Of a stretch of DNA of 24,111 bases, positions 5,210 to 21,195 are shown in pieces. The notes beneath the pieces were generated by a model. The model ran no database searches, was not told where the DNA came from, and saw nothing but the letters and a program-made list of their open reading frames with translations. Position 1 is the first letter of the stretch. Each line of letters begins with the position of its first letter. This stretch comes from a virus (taxonomy: Duplodnaviria > Caudoviricetes). A program made the translations under genes and the position numbers. The stretch is from positions 1 to 24,111 of IMG/VR virus record IMGVR_UViG_3300034684_000205. One strand, 5' to 3'.

Positions 5210-5626
5210 ATGTCAAAATTTAGCATATATTATATTAAAGAAGAGGACTTAGATAAATTAATAGATTTATATAAGAAAATGCATGAAAATATAAACTATG
5301 GGCTTTTACCAGCACAAATAGAGAAAGAATGTTTGCAATTTATTAGTAAGGTAGGAAGTATAGTACTTGGTTTATATAAAGAAAATGAACTAGTAGGTTT
5401 TTTTATAGGCCATCCATTAGACTCAGAAGTATTCTTTTGGTCAAGCCTATATATAGAACCTAAATACAGATTTAAAGCTAAGGATTTAATAGATACTGGA
5501 ATTGATATAATAAGACAAGCAGGATTTAAAAAGTGGAGGGCTGAAAGTGCCACTAAAGAAGGCCAAAATATTATATCTAGATATAAAGGTAAAATAATAG
5601 CTATACATTACGAAGCGGAGGTATAG
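5210..5626 (+). CDS. GNAT-fold acyltransferase-like protein
   Basis: Pattern 'ELVGFF...SLYIEPKYR...IRQAGFKKW' matches GNAT strands and motif A. Its position just before ejection-protein genes is common in podoviruses. Confidence 0.7.
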   Translation: MSKFSIYYIKEEDLDKLIDLYKKMHENINYGLLPAQIEKECLQFISKVGSIVLGLYKENELVGFFIGHPLDSEVFFWSSLYIEPKYRFKAKDLIDTGIDIIRQAGFKKWRAESATKEGQNIISRYKGKIIAIHYEAEV

Positions 5627-5725
5627 ATGAGAGAAAAGGTAGAACCTAAAGAACATAAAATAAAGAAGTCTAATTTAACTGAAGCTTTTGAAAATACTAA
5701 TGCAAAAACTCGTGGAGGTAAATAA
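5627..5725 (+). CDS. Unannotated 32-aa ORF (MREKVEPKEHKIKKSNLTEAFENTNAKTRGGK)
   Basis: GGAGGT at 5617-5622, ATG immediately after the GNAT stop, and a TAATG overlap with the next gene. It fills the intergenic gap exactly. Confidence 0.65.
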   Translation: MREKVEPKEHKIKKSNLTEAFENTNAKTRGGK

Positions 5726-6348
5726 TGGGTGGAGTTGTTAGAACTGTAACAGACGCTATTGGTCTAACAGACTATTCAGGTGCGGCAAAAGCCCAAGAAG
5801 CTGCTGCAGATGCTGCTAAAGCAGGCGTAGCTCTATCAGCTGAGCAAGTAGAGTTTATGAAAGAGCAATATAATGACTGGAAAGCTATATTTGGTGATTT
5901 AACTGAAACATTAGGTGATTATTTTAAATCTCTTGAACCTGATGATGTAATAGCACCTAAAATACAGTCTATAAATAAAGAATTAGCTAAAGCTAAGGAG
6001 AATATAGAAGTTACATTAGCTCAAAAAGGTTTAGACAAGAGCTCTATTGCAGAAAAAGCTTTAACCTCACTAGAAGTAGCAGGAGCCCAACAAAGAGCCA
6101 TAGCTAGAGCTACTGCTGAAGATGAAGTAAGAGCAAAACAAATGGGTTTCTTAGGATTAGGTTTAGGTCAAGGTACTCAAATGTTAGGTCAAATAAATAT
6201 GGCCGGACAAACAGCAGTTAATGCCACCGGAGCATTAGCAGGAGTTAATAGCCAATATGCTAATACACTATGGCAAGGTAGCCAAGGTGTTATTAATAGT
6301 ATTCTTCAAGGCGCTGCTACTGGTGGAACTTATGCTATGTTAAAATAA
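5725..6348 (+). CDS. Ejection / internal virion protein (P22 gp7-like position and composition)
   Basis: Ala/Gly/Gln-rich with 'GAAKAQEAAADAAKAG...QVEFMKEQYN' and a Gly-rich hydrophobic C-terminus. RBS GGAGGT. Confidence 0.65.
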   Translation: MGGVVRTVTDAIGLTDYSGAAKAQEAAADAAKAGVALSAEQVEFMKEQYNDWKAIFGDLTETLGDYFKSLEPDDVIAPKIQSINKELAKAKENIEVTLAQKGLDKSSIAEKALTSLEVAGAQQRAIARATAEDEVRAKQMGFLGLGLGQGTQMLGQINMAGQTAVNATGALAGVNSQYANTLWQGSQGVINSILQGAATGGTYAMLK

Positions 6349-6360
6349 GAGGAGATAGCT

Positions 6361-7827
6361 ATGGGTTTTGGTGAAGGTGTAGCGCAAGGTATACAATTAG
6401 CTTTAACTAAAAAGCAGATTGATATCCAAAGCCAATATTTAGATTTAAAAAGACAAGAGGTTGACGCACAAAATAAGAGAATAGAAGCTGAACTATTAGG
6501 GGCTGGCTATGTTAAAGATGACTCAGGTAAATGGGTTCCTGGTGAATTACTTAAAAATAAACAGCAGTTAGAAATTGAAAAGATTAATGCTGATTTAGAA
6601 ACACTAAAGCTTGAAAATAATAAATATAAAACATTATGGCAGCACGTAGCAGCTCAAACTACAGCAGATGCACTAGTTAAATCAGTTGAAGCTGGTGACC
6701 CAAGGTATATAAATGCTCTACCTGAATATACTAAAAATTTATTTGAATTCAAAAAGATAAGACCTTTTAATCCTGTAGACCCTAAGGCTGAGCAATATTT
6801 AAGAACTATACATAAAAGATTTTTAGAGAGTCCTTTAGTAGCTGAGTATTTAACACAAGCAGGAATAGACAAAGAGCAAATAAAAGATTTTAATAATTTT
6901 AAAGATATAGCTATACAAAATGCTAAAACATTAAATAAATTGGTAGGTATTTCTGAATTTTTAGATGGAAAAGAAGATGTAGTGTTATACCCAGAAATTG
7001 CTACTATAATAGGTGCTAAGCGTTTTGTAGCAGATAGTCAATTTAATTATATGGTTGATGCTTTTAAGTCTTTAACAAATGCTACTTCTAAAACATATCA
7101 GCCTTCTGTATATGAGCTTAAAAAAAGAGATATTGAAGCATATCAAAGAGAAATAGAGTCTTGGGGTAAAAATAAAGGCTTAAATGGGATAGAGCCTAAA
7201 GCATTAACACCTGAGCAAAAAGGTAAAGTATTTGACTATATGTGGACTAAAGGTATTAAGCTAGACTCACAAGATAAGAAAATAATAGAAAGTGTAAACA
7301 AAATGGTAAGCCTTGCTGACTCTGCGTCTAAGCTAACACCAGACCAATTAGGACCTATAGATAAAAAAGTATTTGATATTAAGAAATATTTAGGTATAGA
7401 CCCTGATAGTGCTGAATCTGTATTAGCTTATAATTTAATTAAGTCTACTTTAAGACATGCTTTATTTGGCTCTGCTTTAACAGAAGCAGAAATTAAGTCC
7501 TTTGAAGATGCTTTTGCTAATCTAAACCAAAGACCTGAGGTTATATTTAAAGGCTTAGCGAATATGTATAAGCAAATACATGGGCAATTACAATCTGTAA
7601 TTGATACTAATGACCCATATATTACTATTCCTTTATTTGGTGGTATGGTAAGTGATATTAATAGTATTATAGATAGACTTAATAATTTAGCTAAAAAATA
7701 TGGTACTAAAGCAGGCGCGAAACCGGAAACGCCTAGACTTGTATCACCTGATGCTATTAATGTTAATACTCCTACTGATACTCCTGCTGAATCAATAAAG
7801 AAAAATCCTTTTTATATACAAAACTAG
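6361..7827 (+). CDS. Ejection / internal virion protein (P22 gp20-like position)
   Basis: N-terminal MGFGEGVAQG amphipathic segment, predicted all-helical body and a C-terminal 'LFGSALTEAEIKSF' motif. RBS GAGGAG. Confidence 0.55.
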   Translation: MGFGEGVAQGIQLALTKKQIDIQSQYLDLKRQEVDAQNKRIEAELLGAGYVKDDSGKWVPGELLKNKQQLEIEKINADLETLKLENNKYKTLWQHVAAQTTADALVKSVEAGDPRYINALPEYTKNLFEFKKIRPFNPVDPKAEQYLRTIHKRFLESPLVAEYLTQAGIDKEQIKDFNNFKDIAIQNAKTLNKLVGISEFLDGKEDVVLYPEIATIIGAKRFVADSQFNYMVDAFKSLTNATSKTYQPSVYELKKRDIEAYQREIESWGKNKGLNGIEPKALTPEQKGKVFDYMWTKGIKLDSQDKKIIESVNKMVSLADSASKLTPDQLGPIDKKVFDIKKYLGIDPDSAESVLAYNLIKSTLRHALFGSALTEAEIKSFEDAFANLNQRPEVIFKGLANMYKQIHGQLQSVIDTNDPYITIPLFGGMVSDINSIIDRLNNLAKKYGTKAGAKPETPRLVSPDAINVNTPTDTPAESIKKNPFYIQN

Positions 7828-7837
7828 GGGCTAAAAT

Positions 7838-9643
7838 ATGAAAGCAACTATAGAAGATTTAAAAGATACGTTTAAGATAGGCTATGAGATTTATGAAGAT
7901 TCCAGAAAGGAAGCAATGGAAGTTTGGGACTTATTTCATAATAGACACTATACACAGGAACAGCTTTCAGTATTAGCAAATAGAGGTCAGCCTAAAGAAA
8001 CGTTTAATGTGTTTAAAATGTTTGGTAGAATGCTTATTGGTTACTATTCAACTGTTATAAACACAATTAAGTTTATACCAATACAACAACAAGATGTAGC
8101 AATAACAGAAATACTAAATAATTTAGTTAACTATGTATTGCGCAAGAATAATATGGACAGTGTAGGAGATGATATAAAATTAGGTGGGTTGCTTTCAGGG
8201 TTATTTTCGGCCTACATAGATGTAGTAGATAGTGGCAGAAGAGATGAGTTTGGCAGGCCTATCTATGATATAGAACTAGAATATGTGCCAGATTATGAAT
8301 TAGTTTTAGACCCTATGAGTCGCAAAGAAGACTACTCTGATGCAAGGTTTATTCATAGATTTAGGTGGCTAAATAAAGAACAAGTTATAAAACTATTTGG
8401 TAAGAGAAAGGTAGATGAGTTAGAAGCTAATTATAACTTCTTAAATGTAGAGGAAGCTGAGTTAAGTTATAAATATGACAATGCTTTTGCAGGTTACTAT
8501 AAGCTACATGATAATTACTTAATAGTCCACTCCATAATAGTTGATGATAAAGACGAAGTATGGTCAATTTATTGGAGTGGTGATACTATACTAGAAAAGA
8601 AAAAAGTAACGTTTAAAAAAGTAAGGTTTCCTTATAGAATTTTAAAACTTCATAAGAGTGATAAAGAAGAGTACTATGGCATAATGAGGGAAGTTATTGA
8701 GCCACAAAAAGCTATAAATCAAGCTTTATTAAAAATACAACTACTAGTTAATACTCAAAAAGCTCTTGTTCAGCATGGGGCTGTAGATAATTTAGCCGAG
8801 TTCACTGCAGCTTTTAATAGAGTTAGTGGTGTAATACCTGTAAATGACTTAAATGGTATTAAGATAGAAAATATATCTCCAGATATCCAGCAACAATACC
8901 TAATTATTAATAATGCTTTAGATAGGATACAAAAAATATTAGGTATTAATGATAGCTTTCTTGGTATGGCATATGCTTCTGATAGTGGTAAAAAAGTCCA
9001 GCTACAACAAAATGCAACTATATTAGCTTTAAGATTTGCTTCAGTTAAAATAGAAAAATTTTACAAATTACTTGGGATGGATATAGCTAATTTAATTCAA
9101 CAGTATTTTACAGCTCATCAAATAATAAATCTTAACGATGATGATATAGTTAGTAGATGGCTAGAAATTAATAAACCATTAATGAAGTATACAGGTAGAA
9201 TATTGCCAGATGGAACTCCTGAGCAAATCCCTGTATTTGTCGAGGCATTAAATCCTGACACAGGTGAGCCTTTAATTGATGAGGAAGGTAATTATATAAT
9301 GGTTCCTGTTACAGAGAAAGGCTCAGATATTTACTTTACTGATTTTGATGTAGAAGTGCAATCTGTTGCTTATAATGATACTAATGAACAGAATAGGCAA
9401 ATGCTTGAAACATTATTAGGTGGTCCTGTAGGACAACTATTAATGCAAATAGCACCTGCGCAATATTTTAAAATTGCTTCACTTACAGTTAAAAATATTA
9501 AGCTTAAAAATTCTAGTGAAGTAGCAGAAATTTTAAGCCAAGTTTCAGCTGCGTTAGGCGGAAGTCCACAGTTAGAACAGCAAGCTCAAATGATGGCTCA
9601 AGATGTTAGTCAATTAGCATCACAGCCAAATAGGGAGGGTTAG
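7838..9643 (+). CDS. Portal protein, P22-like
   Basis: 601 aa with 'L..RGQP..TFN', 'LDPMSRKEDYSDARF....W', 'YYGIMREVIEPQKAIN', 'SGKKVQLQQ', 'DFDVEV' and a Gln-rich helical C-terminal barrel. These are hallmarks of P22-type portals. Confidence 0.85.
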   Translation: MKATIEDLKDTFKIGYEIYEDSRKEAMEVWDLFHNRHYTQEQLSVLANRGQPKETFNVFKMFGRMLIGYYSTVINTIKFIPIQQQDVAITEILNNLVNYVLRKNNMDSVGDDIKLGGLLSGLFSAYIDVVDSGRRDEFGRPIYDIELEYVPDYELVLDPMSRKEDYSDARFIHRFRWLNKEQVIKLFGKRKVDELEANYNFLNVEEAELSYKYDNAFAGYYKLHDNYLIVHSIIVDDKDEVWSIYWSGDTILEKKKVTFKKVRFPYRILKLHKSDKEEYYGIMREVIEPQKAINQALLKIQLLVNTQKALVQHGAVDNLAEFTAAFNRVSGVIPVNDLNGIKIENISPDIQQQYLIINNALDRIQKILGINDSFLGMAYASDSGKKVQLQQNATILALRFASVKIEKFYKLLGMDIANLIQQYFTAHQIINLNDDDIVSRWLEINKPLMKYTGRILPDGTPEQIPVFVEALNPDTGEPLIDEEGNYIMVPVTEKGSDIYFTDFDVEVQSVAYNDTNEQNRQMLETLLGGPVGQLLMQIAPAQYFKIASLTVKNIKLKNSSEVAEILSQVSAALGGSPQLEQQAQMMAQDVSQLASQPNREG

Positions 9644-16333: not shown

Positions 16334-17133
16334 TATATTTCTCCCTTTACAAAAGGACAAGTATCATATAAAGAGCAATAGTTAGGACTACATAAGTACC
16401 ATTTAGGATTACCTCTAAATAATACTTCAGCTGGTACTGTATCTTTAAAAAATATACTTAAAGTTTTAAGCATAGATTCTAATAAATATTTAGCTTGAGT
16501 TGTGTCAACTTCAATATCCATTATTTGGCCACCTGCTGTAGTCTTAGATAAAACTATATTCTGAATATAAGAATAACTAATCTTTTTATTATTAACTTCA
16601 GCTAAATATTTATACACACTTTGCTGAGTTTTATAATGCGCAGTTGTAGCTTTTCTTTGAGTAGTTTTAATATCGCCTATCTCTTTATCAGTTATATAAT
16701 CTATAGTTCCTCCAATTTCCGCAACAACAGGATGAGTAATTTGTATAGCATACCTTTTCTCAACTGCTTCTGGAATATCTAAAAACGGCATAAGGTCTTC
16801 TATAAATATTTTAGCTCCTTTAACAATAAAATACTCAGCATTATCTTCTTTAATTGTCTCATCAAATTGCAAGCCTTTCTGTTTCTCTTCTTTAAAAGCT
16901 TCCATAGCTGCATCAAGAGCTACGCTTTCAGTTGTGACTTTTCTTTTTTCTTTCATACTTTCAGTCCATAAAACTTCCGCTGCTTTATGGATAGCAGTTC
17001 CTACCGCAGCCCTAGCTGACGGAATAGTTATTACCCCTTCTAAAAATACCTTAGCCCATTGATAAGGGCAGTTCAAAAATGTGTCTATAGCAGAAGGTCT
17101 AATAGTTATTTTACGCCCATCCCAATTAATCAT
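16333..17133 (-). CDS. Cas4/RecB-like PD-(D/E)XK exonuclease with predicted Fe-S cluster
   Basis: PS......CP, GTAIH, E, GTID, DIKT and Q..VY motifs, plus a C-terminal C-x4-C-x5-C cluster. Confidence 0.85.
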   Translation of the reverse strand: MINWDGRKITIRPSAIDTFLNCPYQWAKVFLEGVITIPSARAAVGTAIHKAAEVLWTESMKEKRKVTTESVALDAAMEAFKEEKQKGLQFDETIKEDNAEYFIVKGAKIFIEDLMPFLDIPEAVEKRYAIQITHPVVAEIGGTIDYITDKEIGDIKTTQRKATTAHYKTQQSVYKYLAEVNNKKISYSYIQNIVLSKTTAGGQIMDIEVDTTQAKYLLESMLKTLSIFFKDTVPAEVLFRGNPKWYLCSPNYCSLYDTCPFVKGEI

Positions 17134-17765
17134 CTTTTTCTCCTTTTAGCAAATAATTCAACCAAAAATATAGCATTAGTTGCAGCATGTGACAGGTGAT
17201 GTATACCACTTTCTTTGTCAAATTCCTCTCCTAATCTCCAGGCTTCTATATGACGATATAAAGCTGCAATGTATCTGTATGGGTCATCTACTAATTTCCA
17301 ATTATTTGGCTTATATTTCTTAGCTCCATAAGTAAGAACTCTAGCTAATTCTTTTAATGCAAATGGAGGTAGTAAATCATACCTAAGCTTATCTGCATCA
17401 AACTTCATAAATGCACCAACTATATGTAGCTTGCAACCAAATTTTTTAATTTCAGCTAAGCAATTTTCACAAGGTGGATGGGTTACAAACATAGTTAATC
17501 GACTAGTATCTATAACATTTTCATGCTCAGCTTGGCTAAAATTTTTAATACAAGCCACTTCAGCATGCACTACATTAGGCAGAGTAATACCATCTATCTC
17601 ACAAGGCTCATCCTCATTTGGGTTATGATTATAGCCTGAAGCCACTATAATATCATTTTCTACGTCAGCTAATATAGCCCCAACTTTTCTCTTTTTAGAA
17701 GGACTTTGTGCAGCAACTTTTAAAGCTTCTGCTTCAAATTTGTCTATATTTCTAATCTTACTCAT
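17130..17765 (-). CDS. Fusion of dCMP deaminase (N-terminal) and DUF5664 / dATP-dGTP diphosphohydrolase-like domain (C-terminal)
   Basis: Deaminase motifs are KVGA, GYN, HAE and PCENC. The second domain reads KFDADKLRYDLLP...LTYGAKKY..NNW...ALYRH...D.ESGIHHLSHAATN. Confidence 0.9.
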   Translation of the reverse strand: MSKIRNIDKFEAEALKVAAQSPSKKRKVGAILADVENDIIVASGYNHNPNEDEPCEIDGITLPNVVHAEVACIKNFSQAEHENVIDTSRLTMFVTHPPCENCLAEIKKFGCKLHIVGAFMKFDADKLRYDLLPPFALKELARVLTYGAKKYKPNNWKLVDDPYRYIAALYRHIEAWRLGEEFDKESGIHHLSHAATNAIFLVELFAKRRKR

Positions 17766-18123
17766 TTGACACCTCTTTCCATAATAATGTTAATCTTTCT
17801 GTAGGTGGGATATAAGAGTCACCTTTGTTAATGTTAGCTTTTATACTTGAGTCAACTTTCTCAACTTTTTTAGAATCATTAGAATCACAAACAATTTCAA
17901 TAGCTCTGTAAATTTGCTCTTCGTTTAATCCAAGCTTCCATAAAGCACCAGTAGCTACATAAATAATATCAACTAAAGCATCGATTTTATCTACTGGGTT
18001 TCTTGCAACAGTAAGCTCATTAACTTCCTCAAGCAGCAAATTACAAGTTAAATTGTGACTATACTCTTGCTCGTATCTGTTACTATTCCAATTAATTATC
18101 CTTTTGATTATAAGTGTATCCAT
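17758..18123 (-). CDS. All-alpha NTP pyrophosphatase (MazG / PRA-PH-like, dUTPase/dCTPase-type)
   Basis: EEVNE...DALVD metal-binding motif, 'V..SN.SK' and 'KG..Y.PP'. Confidence 0.85.
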   Translation of the reverse strand: MDTLIIKRIINWNSNRYEQEYSHNLTCNLLLEEVNELTVARNPVDKIDALVDIIYVATGALWKLGLNEEQIYRAIEIVCDSNDSKKVEKVDSSIKANINKGDSYIPPTERLTLLWKEVSNE

Positions 18124-18512
18124 AGTTCAACTCCTCTAATTTTATTTTGTAGCCTATAATTATTTAATAACCAATCTTTTTGCCATCTTTTGCCTTCAGT
18201 TAAAACTTGCTCACTTCTAACAATATACAACATAAATGGAGGGTATTCTTTAAAAGTTTTAATACCTAAATTAATGTGGTTTAGCATATAAATATCTTGC
18301 TCTTTAGTTAGTCTTGTAGTTATTTTCTTAATACTAGTAGGCAAATCATTATAGGTATTGTCACTACAAACTATATATTTGTCACACACTAAGTCAATTA
18401 AAAATTGTTTATCCCAATTAGGCCTATTTGGTAAATTACCTTCCTCATCAAGATAAAAATTATACGTATTATCTAGTAACACGCTACCAATTCCATTATA
18501 CAAATAGTTCAT
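18108..18512 (-). CDS. Highly divergent dihydrofolate reductase-like protein
   Basis: 'GNLPNRPNWDKQFL...IVCSDNTYNDLP' aligns by eye with DHFR 'N.MPW.LPADL.WF...VIMGRHTWESI', and 'MLYIVRS....EG' with 'LYLTHI....EGD'. It lies directly downstream of a TS-fold gene. Start at 18512 with RBS AAGGAG. Confidence 0.55.
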   Translation of the reverse strand: MNYLYNGIGSVLLDNTYNFYLDEEGNLPNRPNWDKQFLIDLVCDKYIVCSDNTYNDLPTSIKKITTRLTKEQDIYMLNHINLGIKTFKEYPPFMLYIVRSEQVLTEGKRWQKDWLLNNYRLQNKIRGVELWIHL

Positions 18513-19299
18513 ATTTGAAATCTCCTTTAGGTTCATAGTCAAATATTACAAGCAAGTCTTTAGTAAAAAATGTGCTAGATATACCTGGTAGTATATTAAG
18601 CATATAAGTAACAGGCTCAAACTTTGAACTATTAATTAGCTCTAATTGTTTAATTAAAGTTTTAACATGCTTTTGATAAATATGAGCATCACCTAACATA
18701 AAGATTATTTTCCTTGGTAATTTATTAGCAGCATTAGCAATAAGAGCTAATAATAGGCCAGCAGTTACAAAGTCTACAGATAAACCTAAAGCAACATCTG
18801 CACTTCTTTGATACCATATCATATCAACAAACTTATCTTCACAGTAGAATTGGTATAAAATATGACAGCAAGGCAGACTAAGCTTATTTAGCCTATCCGG
18901 GCGCCAACCAGAAATAATCATTCGTCTGTCTGTAGGATTTTCTTTAAGAGCCTTTTCAACTGCAAGTAACTGATTAACACCATTCCAGTCAAGCCAAGCA
19001 TTACCGTAATCTAATTCTAAATTTCCTTCAGCATCTCCATATTCAGTCCAATATTTGCAGCCTCTTGAAGTAAAATCCTCAACTTTTTTAGGCTTGTTAA
19101 GAAATGCTTCTAATTCACCTGCTGCAGATTTAAATGGTATTCGTCTACTTTGCATTATAGGGAAACCATTCATTGACATATCATAAGTGAAGGAATAGCC
19201 AAATATGCTAAAAACTTCACCATTTCTAACTTGCCTCTTATTACCAGTAGTTAGTATATGATTAGCTAAATCTTTAAAAGCATAGTCGATTAAAGTCAT
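18496..19299 (-). CDS. Thymidylate synthase-fold enzyme with Asn->Asp specificity substitution (predicted dCMP methylase/hydroxymethylase)
   Basis: TS motifs are present: R.G, EL, YG, NP.DRR, LPCCH (catalytic Cys), YQRSAD and GDAHIY. However, it reads LGLSVD where ThyA has LGLPFN. Confidence 0.9.
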   Translation of the reverse strand: MTLIDYAFKDLANHILTTGNKRQVRNGEVFSIFGYSFTYDMSMNGFPIMQSRRIPFKSAAGELEAFLNKPKKVEDFTSRGCKYWTEYGDAEGNLELDYGNAWLDWNGVNQLLAVEKALKENPTDRRMIISGWRPDRLNKLSLPCCHILYQFYCEDKFVDMIWYQRSADVALGLSVDFVTAGLLLALIANAANKLPRKIIFMLGDAHIYQKHVKTLIKQLELINSSKFEPVTYMLNILPGISSTFFTKDLLVIFDYEPKGDFKYELFV

Positions 19300-19553
19300 T
19301 GCTCTACCTCGTCATTGTCCTCGTCGTCATCTAATTCATCCAAATCATAACCATAAAATTCTAAATCGTCATAATCTAATACCTCATCATCAAGTAATGT
19401 TTGAATTTCTTTTTTAGTTAGATAACCATTTCTCAAATCCTTAATTGCCTTATCATACTCTTTTTTTCTACCACATAATGAGTCCGGCTCATTCCAATCA
19501 CCTGAGCATTCACCAAAATAATTCTCATATTTACATATTCCAGTATAACACAT
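19296..19553 (-). CDS. Small protein with 4-Cys N-terminus and highly acidic C-terminus
   Basis: RBS GGAGGTG and an ATGA overlap with the TS-fold gene. Cys at residues 2, 7, 16 and 27. 18 of the last 31 residues are D/E. Confidence 0.75.
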   Translation of the reverse strand: MCYTGICKYENYFGECSGDWNEPDSLCGRKKEYDKAIKDLRNGYLTKKEIQTLLDDEVLDYDDLEFYGYDLDELDDDEDNDEVEQ

Positions 19554-19563
19554 AAAACACCTC

Positions 19564-21195
19564 CTATAAATTTATTTCCCAAACAAACTTATCGCTTTCT
19601 ATATCACCCCAATTATAACCAACTCTAACATTAACAGGCATAGGTATATCTTTAGCTTTGACTCCAGTTCCATTAACTAATTCTTGCCAAGCTCTTTGCA
19701 TACATTCACCAACTTTCTTAGCCACTTCTTTATATTCAGCAGGCTTATCAGGGCCAGTTATATAAAAACTATCGTGGATATAATTATTTAATTCAAATTC
19801 AGAGCCTTGCAAAATCTCATCAATATATATTAAAGCTAATTTACTTATCTCTGCTCCAAAACCTTGATTCATAATATTTAATTGGTCCGTTAGTCGGGCA
19901 CCTAAATATTTTCTACCACAAGGAGTTGACCATAACTGCTGGTGTCTCCAAGCTGATTTACCTTGCTCCTGCCAAGCTGTTATACCTGAATATAAGTTAT
20001 GCCACTTTTGTTTCTTATCTCTTATCTCATCTTCAGTTAGCCATATGTTAGCATCCTTAATAAGCCTTGATTTAGCAACTCCAACACCTGCACCATATAA
20101 TAAACTAAAATTAAAAGTTTTAGCTATTTGTCTTTCTCGTTTCGTCCAGTCTTTACCAAATAATAGCTCAGCAGTATAACCGTGTAAATCTATACCTTCT
20201 TTAAATAATTGGCACATTATTTTATCTCCAGTTATTGCGGCTATTGTCCTTAACTCTAATTGAGAAAAGTCAGAATAAATAATAACATGCTCTTCAGGTG
20301 CTGAAAATAGTTTTTTCAAATTACGAGGAATTTGCTGTAAATTTTGGTCAAAACTAGCAAATCTACCTGAACGTGTTTTAGGTGAAAATTTACCATATAT
20401 TTTATTATCACTATCACAAGAATCTAAAAACTTTTGAATAAATGAGTTCTCTTTTAGCAATTTTCTAACTATTCTAACTTGCTCCGCTTTTTCATTACCT
20501 TGCAAAGCTAACTTAGCTAAAGCTAAATCATCAGATTCCTCACTTTCTATATAAGGTCTTACTTGGATATAACTATTAGGGTTAATTGGTAAATTGATTT
20601 TTTGGACTTTTTCTTTATTTAAAGATAGATATTCAAAACTTTTATTTATATCTAAATATAAACCATTATTTTGGAAATTTAATGCTATTTTTAACGTTCT
20701 AATATCTTGTTTATAAACAAATGAATCAGTAACAGTTTTACACTTTTCCCAAATTGGTGCTAAATAATAAGTATCTTTCTTTGCATACTCTATCTGCTCT
20801 TGTGAGTATAAGCCTTTTTTGAAAGATTTTTGCAAGTCTTTTTTATTACTTTCATAAGGATTAAAACCTAAAGCATATAAACAAACAGATTCTAAGTCAA
20901 AGTTTTCTTTTGCAGGCCACCTTAGCTTTGCTGCAATAAATGTGTCATCAAATTTATAAGGTATAAAATTAGTTTTAGTCTGCTTTTGCATTGTTGATAT
21001 GTCATAATGAATATTATGACCTATAATATATTTATCAAGCAAAAAACTAAGTAAATCATAAGAATTAGGTCTTTCTATAACTATTGCTTCAGGCCAACCT
21101 TTCTGATAAAATGAAGCTAATAATATTTCACCATATAAATCTTGAGTTTCTAAGTCAAAAAATAAAGGCTCTTCTTTATTGACATTTTCAATCAT
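19564..21195 (-). CDS. polA: Family A DNA polymerase with 3'-5' exonuclease, no 5'-3' exonuclease
   Basis: ExoI DLET, ExoII HN..YD, ExoIII YA..D, SGR, NLQQIPR, motif A DFSQLELR, motif B RQIAKTFNFSLLYG and motif C HDS. RBS AGGAGG. Confidence 0.95.
   Translation of the reverse strand: MIENVNKEEPLFFDLETQDLYGEILLASFYQKGWPEAIVIERPNSYDLLSFLLDKYIIGHNIHYDISTMQKQTKTNFIPYKFDDTFIAAKLRWPAKENFDLESVCLYALGFNPYESNKKDLQKSFKKGLYSQEQIEYAKKDTYYLAPIWEKCKTVTDSFVYKQDIRTLKIALNFQNNGLYLDINKSFEYLSLNKEKVQKINLPINPNSYIQVRPYIESEESDDLALAKLALQGNEKAEQVRIVRKLLKENSFIQKFLDSCDSDNKIYGKFSPKTRSGRFASFDQNLQQIPRNLKKLFSAPEEHVIIYSDFSQLELRTIAAITGDKIMCQLFKEGIDLHGYTAELLFGKDWTKRERQIAKTFNFSLLYGAGVGVAKSRLIKDANIWLTEDEIRDKKQKWHNLYSGITAWQEQGKSAWRHQQLWSTPCGRKYLGARLTDQLNIMNQGFGAEISKLALIYIDEILQGSEFELNNYIHDSFYITGPDKPAEYKEVAKKVGECMQRAWQELVNGTGVKAKDIPMPVNVRVGYNWGDIESDKFVWEINL

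Follow-up and report, generated by a model that had tools for sequence, protein, structure and literature searches.

The locus described here lies in a 24,111-nucleotide stretch of viral DNA (hereafter called the window; positions 1 to 24,111 of IMG/VR record IMGVR_UViG_3300034684_000205) and comprises a cluster of nucleotide-metabolism genes built around a homologue of thymidylate synthase (TS) that is predicted to act on dCMP. The window proteins include a P22-type portal, PolA, a primase and a ligase, indicating that the stretch is part of a podovirus-like phage. The record containing it (G001) is 37,571 bp in length with a base content of 32% GC, carries terminal repeats and is rated complete. 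Between polA, which encodes a family A DNA polymerase with a 3′–5′ exonuclease (19564..21195, minus strand; PF00476, E 7.6e-43, and PF01612), and the gene for a Cas4-like nuclease there are five minus-strand open reading frames (ORFs), as the initial annotation had described. All five are open, and each starts with ATG behind an AG-rich motif resembling a ribosome-binding site. From polA onward they encode an 85-aa Cys-rich, acidic protein (19296..19553), a ThyA-fold enzyme of 267 aa (18496..19299; PF00303, E 5.8e-57), a divergent protein with a predicted dihydrofolate reductase (DHFR) fold of 134 aa as read from the ATG at 18512 (18108..18512), a PRA-PH/MazG (DR2231-like) all-alpha NTP pyrophosphohydrolase of 121 aa (17758..18123; PF01503, E 6.5e-8) and a 211-aa fusion of a deaminase to DUF5664 (17130..17765; PF00383 and PF18909). 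The first ORF begins 10 nt from the end of polA, and the genes are then chained by successive overlaps of 4, 17, 16 and 8 nt, with a final overlap of 4 nt between the fusion gene and the Cas4-like gene. Because the same stretch is found on contigs from four further public runs, mostly at 95–99% identity and in one piece in two of them, the locus is not an assembly artefact. The substitution spectrum across the four runs, wherein C>T/G>A changes are about as frequent as T>C/A>G changes, is uninformative on 5-methylcytosine (5mC).

The TS homologue retains the TS fold and an intact catalytic set (Cys146, Arg21/126/127/166, Ser167, His207 and Tyr209 at E. coli positions), along with the equivalents of E58, W80 and Y94 that form the hydride-transfer pocket. 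Its residues L142, C145, H146, D168 and D176 correspond to E. coli L143, C146, H147, D169 and N177, respectively, wherein the last position is changed from Asn to Asp. Specifically, Asp176 (GAC codon at 18772..18774 on the minus strand, read from 18774 to 18772) aligns with the Asn of the GVPFN/GLPFN segment in solved TS sequences, which is the residue that sets specificity for dUMP or dCMP. The protein is indeed of the Asp type, as had been proposed, and lacks the Asn177 that is expected of a canonical ThyA. Published work reports that N177D in a TS gives a preference for dCMP (PMC8670742), and that L143D/E marks dCMP hydroxymethylases and D169N hydroxylases (PMC13326640). Because N177D in combination with retained Leu143 and Asp169 fits these rules, the phage enzyme is predicted to be a dCMP C5-methyltransferase that would make 5-methyl-dCMP (5mdCMP). 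The T4 dCMP hydroxymethylase and the RB69 and DLP3 dCMP hydroxylases share the TS fold and Asp177 with the present enzyme, but are reported to carry L143D/E (D169N in the hydroxylases) and to be accompanied by base-modifying transferases (PMC13326640); neither the substitutions nor a linked glycosyltransferase is found here. Among 120 listed homologues of 334 found, position 177 is Asp in 117 and Asn in 3, whereas Leu143, Cys146, His147 and Asp169 are invariant in all 120.

The MazG/PRA-PH and dCMP deaminase–DUF5664 identities given in the initial annotation are borne out by the matches to PF01503, PF00383 and PF18909. The PRA-PH protein carries the motif EEVNE...DKIDALVD, is 32% identical over 56 aa to the PRA-PH protein of Xanthomonas phage Xp12 and is a putative dCTPase. 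The Zn-dependent cytidylate deaminase domain (17418..17747; PF00383, E 5.7e-14, residues 7–116) has intact Zn-binding motifs, HAE at residues 67–69 and PCENC at residues 98–102. It resembles dCMP deaminases, with 4p9c as its best PDB match (E 2.5e-8). The mSCD deaminases are characterized by a PF00383 domain whose HxE and PCxxC motifs are intact and which is encoded in cis with an Asp177 TS; the phage domain fits this pattern and is a probable deaminase of 5mdCMP or its triphosphate (5mdCTP). Yang et al. describe the preference for 5mdCTP over dCTP as polyphyletic, and their account gives no sequence marker for it (bioRxiv 10.1101/2024.12.05.627091). The fused DUF5664 domain (17142..17405; PF18909, E 2.2e-31, residues 121–208) and the PRA-PH domain returned nothing significant in PDB searches, and we therefore infer the substrates of both. 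The DUF5664 protein of phage Wayne is reported to hydrolyze dATP, dUTP and dGTP (PMC12884076), and by analogy the fused domain may be a pyrophosphatase that removes dUTP, with activity on purine nucleotides also possible. A literature search for DUF5664 together with a deaminase returned no paper holding both, and the fusion is a new detail of this locus. Most related loci encode a small helical domain next to the TS, which may be DUF5664, DUF6378, DUF1599/Nmad1 or DUF3310, and these domains are apparently interchangeable (e.g. L018, L031, L053 and L056).

The DHFR-like call of the initial annotation holds for the fold of the 134-aa protein, although no sequence match was obtained in Pfam, among DHFR-type PHROGs, or in NCBIfam, the PDB (phmmer) or the ESM Atlas. 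A full-library search returned 69 proteins at E ≤ 0.001, two of which are long and apparently spurious, and the family comprises about 67 representatives at 50% identity. An AlphaFold2 model built from a 71-row family alignment has a predicted local distance difference test score of 95, and the Foldseek rows listed to rank 50 are all DHFR-family structures. Alignment of this model to DHFR with VIA-align gave a Z score of 12.6 (root-mean-square deviation 2.7, 122 residues aligned), compared with about 11 (11.2) for RibD-type reductases and at most 4.4 for unrelated folds. The 71-row profile finds weak DHFR matches (best E 0.034), and PF00186 is matched by three of the 71 family members (best E 0.0033) but not by the 134-aa protein itself, which is not a member of PF00186. 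The DHFR-like assignment was settled by this profile together with the fold, not by sequence searches. An invariant Asp and near-invariant Pro and Thr of the family align with those of DHFR structure 7k6c, which we take to be catalytic Asp27, Pro21 and Thr46 in E. coli numbering. Profile comparison of the family with either the Xp12 DHFR or canonical phage DHFR gave a probability below 1%. The gene sits directly after the TS gene, and by its modeled fold and its context the protein is likely to recycle dihydrofolate. As judged from the model, these proteins would constitute an unannotated family of minimal, 120–135-aa DHFRs, which is a further new detail of this locus.

The 85-aa ORF matched no Pfam or NCBIfam family and has only three close homologues, and the PolA gene lies next to the TS gene in most relatives. 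This ORF is real, but it is a lineage-specific insertion that is incidental to the conserved cassette. A 2.7-kb contig (L090; DITK01000032.1) in a Francisellaceae bin carries a 97% identical TS, the DHFR-like gene and a copy of the 85-aa ORF, and may be either a host link or mis-binned phage DNA.

To place the cassette among its relatives, loci were collected by TS (with one search providing the best 80 of 158 matches), by Cas4 and by PolA (among the matches listed). The Cas4 and PolA profiles were built from TS-selected loci, and the sample is thus biased toward such loci. The 144 family loci form 81 groups, of which 64 have an Asp177 TS, three an Asn177 TS, two a hydroxymethylase-type TS and 12 no TS in the locus. 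A deaminase is present in 56/64 Asp groups, 0/3 Asn groups, 1/2 hydroxymethylase-type groups and 1/12 TS-less groups, with some of these loci being short and the lone positive TS-less locus being cut at a contig start. PRA-PH/MazG accompanies the TS in 54/64 Asp groups, DUF5664 in 38/64 and DUF6378 in 20/64, whereas the DHFR-like gene occurs in nine and a canonical DHFR in three of the 64. Thus, the co-occurrence in related phages that the initial annotation proposed to examine is found for the deaminase and the pyrophosphatase and, in a minority of groups, for the DHFR-like gene, and the five-gene cassette, although its genes are real, has a conserved core of three. Among IMG/VR records that are at least 90% complete, 17 of 19 have the deaminase, the exceptions being G013 (Asn) and G032 (Asp). 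It is likewise found in five of six GenBank records and is absent from the whole genome of Vibrio phage VPMS1 (Asp). The existence of VPMS1 and G032, which are complete or 98% complete, suggests that the methylated product is kept even where it cannot supply thymine. In two loci (L128, 6115–9898; L184, 7279–12339) the TS slot is occupied by a hydroxymethylase-type TS together with a GNAT protein and a carbamoyltransferase, and in L184 a ThyX is present and the deaminase is absent from the locus. We read these patterns as a slot for cytosine modification, wherein the deaminase travels with the methylase and the methylase can persist without the deaminase.

The nearest cultured phages, all Kafunavirus-like, are KF-1 (Edwardsiella), VPMS1 (Vibrio), Amaethon (Dickeya) and PH1 (Pseudoalteromonas). 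These four share the order PolA–TS(Asp177)–PRA-PH–deaminase/DUF5664–Cas4. Their TS proteins are 38–40% identical to the present enzyme and are all annotated as plain thymidylate synthase, and they differ by having neither the 85-aa ORF nor the DHFR-like gene at this locus. In VPMS1, the deaminase slot (L011:9357-9887) is occupied by a protein that lacks the HxE and PCxxC motifs and has a DUF6378 C-terminus.

Gene content was also examined genome-wide. The complete genome has one TS and no ThyX was found in it; one TS was likewise found in each of 49 genomes, and ThyX in 0/37 Asp, 0/2 Asn, 1/2 hydroxymethylase-type and 4/9 TS-less records. Because each genome has a single TS and the Asp177 genomes have no ThyX, the deaminase would be the only phage route to thymine. 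A post-replicative C5 methyltransferase was found in none of 50 genomes, G001 included. A gene product annotated as a bifunctional DHFR-TS in record MW202744 is not a second TS, as only a single PF00303 match was obtained there. The search for a deoxynucleoside monophosphate (dNMP) kinase, which the initial annotation had proposed to extend beyond the window, covered the 24 proteins of the window and another 21 from G001, with small ORFs only partly covered; neither a kinase nor a glycosyltransferase or carbamoyltransferase was recognized among the proteins scanned.

These features closely parallel those of Xp12 (MT664984; Bosavirus/Pamexvirus group), whose DNA is reported to contain 100% 5mC (PMC7653180). 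Xp12 likewise has adjacent genes for a PRA-PH protein, an Asp177 TS, a PF00383 deaminase and a DHFR, with one TS per genome and no recognizable dNMP kinase, either in its annotation or among 23 proteins scanned. The present genome has this linked gene set and no second TS or ThyX. The two phages differ in genome size and composition (64 kb and about 68% GC for Xp12, compared with 37.6 kb and 32% GC for the podovirus-like phage), in the deaminase–DUF5664 fusion, which is a feature of the present phage, in the DHFR, as noted above, and in the TS, which is 26% identical to that of Xp12 and falls in a different branch of the quick tree described below. The cassettes recovered by MetaGPA (PMC8670742; bioRxiv 10.1101/2024.12.05.627091) share with this locus the N177D rule, the neighboring domains and the proposed formation of dTTP from 5mdCTP, whereas the portions of these papers available to us mention neither DUF5664 fusions nor the present DHFR family. 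Yang et al. (bioRxiv 10.1101/2024.12.05.627091) report that 104/149 deaminases in cytosine-modified contigs are located near a TS gene, as opposed to 17/277 deaminases in unmodified contigs, with TS, MafB19-deam, PRA-PH, PolA and PolA exonuclease as the commonest deaminase neighbors. In their hands 5/7 TS enzymes tested made 5mdC in E. coli. Their deaminase mSCD-B5, which in contrast to the present fusion is a single-domain 154-aa protein beside an Xp12-like TS, acts on 5mdCTP and is inactive on monophosphates, and phages of this kind are described as making dTTP from 5mdCTP, with no need for a second TS. The assignment of the present locus as a further member of this Xp12/MetaGPA 5mC module is well supported, and its pathway has already been described.

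We consider it probable, on the basis of sequence comparisons, that the phage builds its DNA with 5mC in place of cytosine and likely draws thymine from the same methylated nucleotide. The PRA-PH protein would hydrolyze dCTP to dCMP, which the Asp177 TS is predicted to convert to 5mdCMP, using methylene-tetrahydrofolate and leaving dihydrofolate for the DHFR-fold protein to recycle. Host kinases would then produce 5mdCTP for incorporation by PolA. The deaminase, if it acts as the mSCD enzymes do, would convert part of the 5mdC pool, probably as 5mdCTP, to dT, and the fused DUF5664 domain may destroy dUTP that arises through deamination of residual dCTP. The phage would thereby gain protection from those restriction enzymes that 5mC blocks. 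The initial annotation had weighed incorporation of m5C (model A) against a uracil-free supply of dTMP (model B). Both chemical steps are supported, but the choice is a false one, as a single pathway does both in Xp12 and in the cassettes of Yang et al. The latter route had been viewed as unusual, and it is already in print (bioRxiv 10.1101/2024.12.05.627091). Moreover, because the characterized deaminase works on 5mdCTP and not 5mdCMP, thymine more likely arises as dTTP than by the proposed sequence dCMP to m5dCMP to dTMP.

A narrower possibility, which we regard as unlikely, is that only this thymine route operates, such that methylation of dCMP is followed immediately by deamination of the monophosphate to dTMP, host kinases reject 5mdCMP and the DNA remains unmodified. 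The AT-rich composition of the genome, the similarity of the deaminase to dCMP deaminases and the scarcity of kinase-like genes, present in only 5/64 Asp groups and not recognized in this complete genome, are consistent with this possibility. However, a missing kinase, which the initial annotation took as mildly favoring model B, does not favor it, because Xp12 is fully 5mC-modified and also lacks a recognizable kinase. The retention of an Asp TS in complete genomes that have no deaminase, the hydroxymethylase and carbamoyltransferase found in the same slot of some relatives, the inactivity of mSCD-B5 on monophosphates (bioRxiv 10.1101/2024.12.05.627091) and the relief from site avoidance described below all argue for modified DNA, and a neighboring dCTPase would make little sense if the DNA needs dCTP. 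The kinase-like gene just mentioned is a Pfam-negative P-loop gene beside TS (L071:10771-11403, L024, L065 and L093) and is a candidate 5mdCMP kinase. Its profile strongly matched three of 50 genomes, two of which are the sources of the profile, and did not match G001 or Xp12.

If cytosine is methylated, restriction sites blocked by 5mC need not be avoided. Xp12 DNA is reported to be cut by DpnII, MboI, TaqI and BstNI, and partly by RsaI and CviQI, and to resist HaeIII, HhaI, AluI, MspI, HpyCH4IV, HpyCH4V, BstUI, Fnu4HI, Sau96I, NlaIII, BfaI and Hpy188I (PMC7653180, Table S3). In G001 (observed/expected counts over 37,523 bases), several sites that are still cut in Xp12 DNA are depleted, namely GATC (0/62), GTAC (33/70; cut in part) and CCWGG (18/29), whereas blocked sites such as GGCC (39/40), GCGC (24/24), CCGG (26/20), AGCT (279/273) and ACGT (26/28) are near expectation. 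The comparison was extended to loci of at least 11 kb, with nine shorter groups and one cut locus (L143) dropped. Of 17 blocked sites, one or more is strongly avoided in 9/58 Asp loci versus 7/11 Asn or TS-less loci (p 0.002), and with an 11-site subset, picked after a first look, the counts are 2/58 versus 6/11. For six sites that are cut, the corresponding counts are 31/58 versus 7/11 (p 0.74). Phages with Asp177 seldom avoid blocked sites, whereas GATC, at which cutting is not prevented, has been purged in many of them. Site usage provides moderate support for modified DNA across the family, and for G001 itself the picture is mixed.

Some of these site counts are also compatible with modified DNA of a different kind, containing partial 5mC or another C5 product such as 5-hydroxymethylcytosine (5hmC) or 5-hydroxycytosine (5hoC). 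CATG, CTAG and TCNGA are still depleted, the TS clade differs from Xp12 at His147 and Gln165, and two family members (L128 and L184) carry 5hmC-type machinery. We nevertheless find such a product improbable, given the invariance of L143 and D169 in the listed homologues and the preserved hydride-transfer pocket; a DHFR-fold gene suits a methylase that oxidizes folate, and no glycosyl- or carbamoyltransferase was recognized among the scanned proteins of the complete genome. An ordinary dTMP supply module, in which the deaminase makes dUMP, the TS methylates dUMP despite Asp177, the DHFR recycles folate and the pyrophosphatases clear dUTP, is very improbable: the TS passes the cut-off of NCBIfam TIGR03284 (thymidylate synthase) and the same genes have been read in this manner in phage AXL1, whose Xp12-type DHFR is active (PMC9206674), but Asn-to-Asp at position 177 switches specificity to dCMP (PMC8670742, PMC13326640), AXL1 DNA itself resists enzymes with G/C sites (PMC9206674), and Asn177 relatives lack the deaminase that such a module requires.

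Several observations weigh against 5mC-containing DNA in this phage or against parts of the proposed pathway. Two of the seven Asp TS enzymes tested by Yang et al. gave no 5mdC, and selectivity for 5mC was seen in 34 of their 56 active deaminases (bioRxiv 10.1101/2024.12.05.627091). The TS is distant from that of Xp12, which has Pro at the position of His147, and no kinase gene that could phosphorylate 5mdCMP was recognized in G001. In the DHFR-fold protein, the Trp22 of DHFR is replaced, GRKT (including its glycine) reads SDNT, and the GG cofactor motif is missing. A search of the available literature found no report of modified DNA for KF-1, IW-1, ETP-1, VPMS1 or Amaethon. Among the sites of G001, several that would be blocked are low (CATG 27/74, CTAG 71/135, TCNGA 64/95 and GGNCC 16/27), and TCGA is normal (29/30) although it is cut in Xp12 DNA. 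The loci compared are related to one another and come from phages with differing hosts, and the contrast in avoidance stems from TS-less relatives. The Asn177 records, tried as a control, gave no clear contrast: in the two long ones, G/C sites that 5mC would block are not strongly avoided, and the Asn genome G013 has only mild dips (GGCC 0.79 and GCGC 0.74).

In a quick TS tree (no bootstrap; Shimodaira–Hasegawa-like approximate likelihood ratio test supports), the family forms one 81-row branch with a support of 99 that excludes Xp12, itself a long branch. The sequences thus suggest a TS clade that is distinct from that of Xp12 and includes the cultured phages KF-1, VPMS1, Amaethon and PH1, which is another new detail. 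Asn177 rows fall inside this branch at three places, one of them behind a branch with a support of 95. When further Asn177 members of the clade were sought by pattern, four loci were obtained, namely the three already known and one unrelated TS. Two loci (L178 and L180) have an Asp177 TS with Trp at the His147 position.

Taken together, these findings allow a broader but tentative proposal, to which we give slightly less than even odds. Kafunavirus-like podoviruses may be a large lineage with 5mC DNA whose dCMP methylase retains His147 and is distinct from that of Xp12, with KF-1, VPMS1, Amaethon and PH1 as unrecognized 5mC phages. Within this lineage, cytosine chemistry would have switched repeatedly, either by reversion to Asn177 accompanied by deaminase loss or by a change to a hydroxymethylase with a carbamoyltransferase, leaving a signature in restriction-site usage, and folate would be recycled by a Pfam-invisible 120–135-aa DHFR in which the usual motifs for cofactor binding are missing.

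The prediction of 5mC DNA in four cultured phages whose enzymes are annotated as ordinary thymidylate synthases bears on their restriction resistance and on how susceptible they are to nucleases that depend on methylation. Because its members have an Asp, Asn or hydroxymethylase-type TS or none, the family provides natural on/off comparisons. Its deaminase–DUF5664 fusions may be 5mC-selective deaminases, an enzyme type that is employed in methylome sequencing. To a pathway that has already been described, the present locus makes modest additions, namely a distinct TS clade that includes cultured phages, a minimal DHFR family and the fusion.

Other features of the genome lie outside the cassette. 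A GNAT acetyltransferase gene is located between the tail and ejection-protein genes (window 5210–5626, plus strand). Beyond the window, a 132-aa ORF (L015:2255-2653, minus strand) resembles NCBIfam Csx20 (E 3.7e-9, 37 bits, with a cut-off of 70). Csx20 is reported to degrade cyclic tetra-adenylate (cA4; bioRxiv 10.1101/2024.09.24.614671), and the phage protein may be a ring nuclease directed against type III CRISPR. The early region includes two paralogues of PHROG 10459 (L015:3925-4422 and 5725-6261), to which no function is assigned. Finally, the terminase gene (L015) is preceded by an AT-rich gap, about 1.8 kb long, that contains a 45-bp tandem array of six to seven copies at 7349–7754 and several 43–78-bp duplications within 7223–8243, and this repeat-rich gap is possibly an origin or packaging region.

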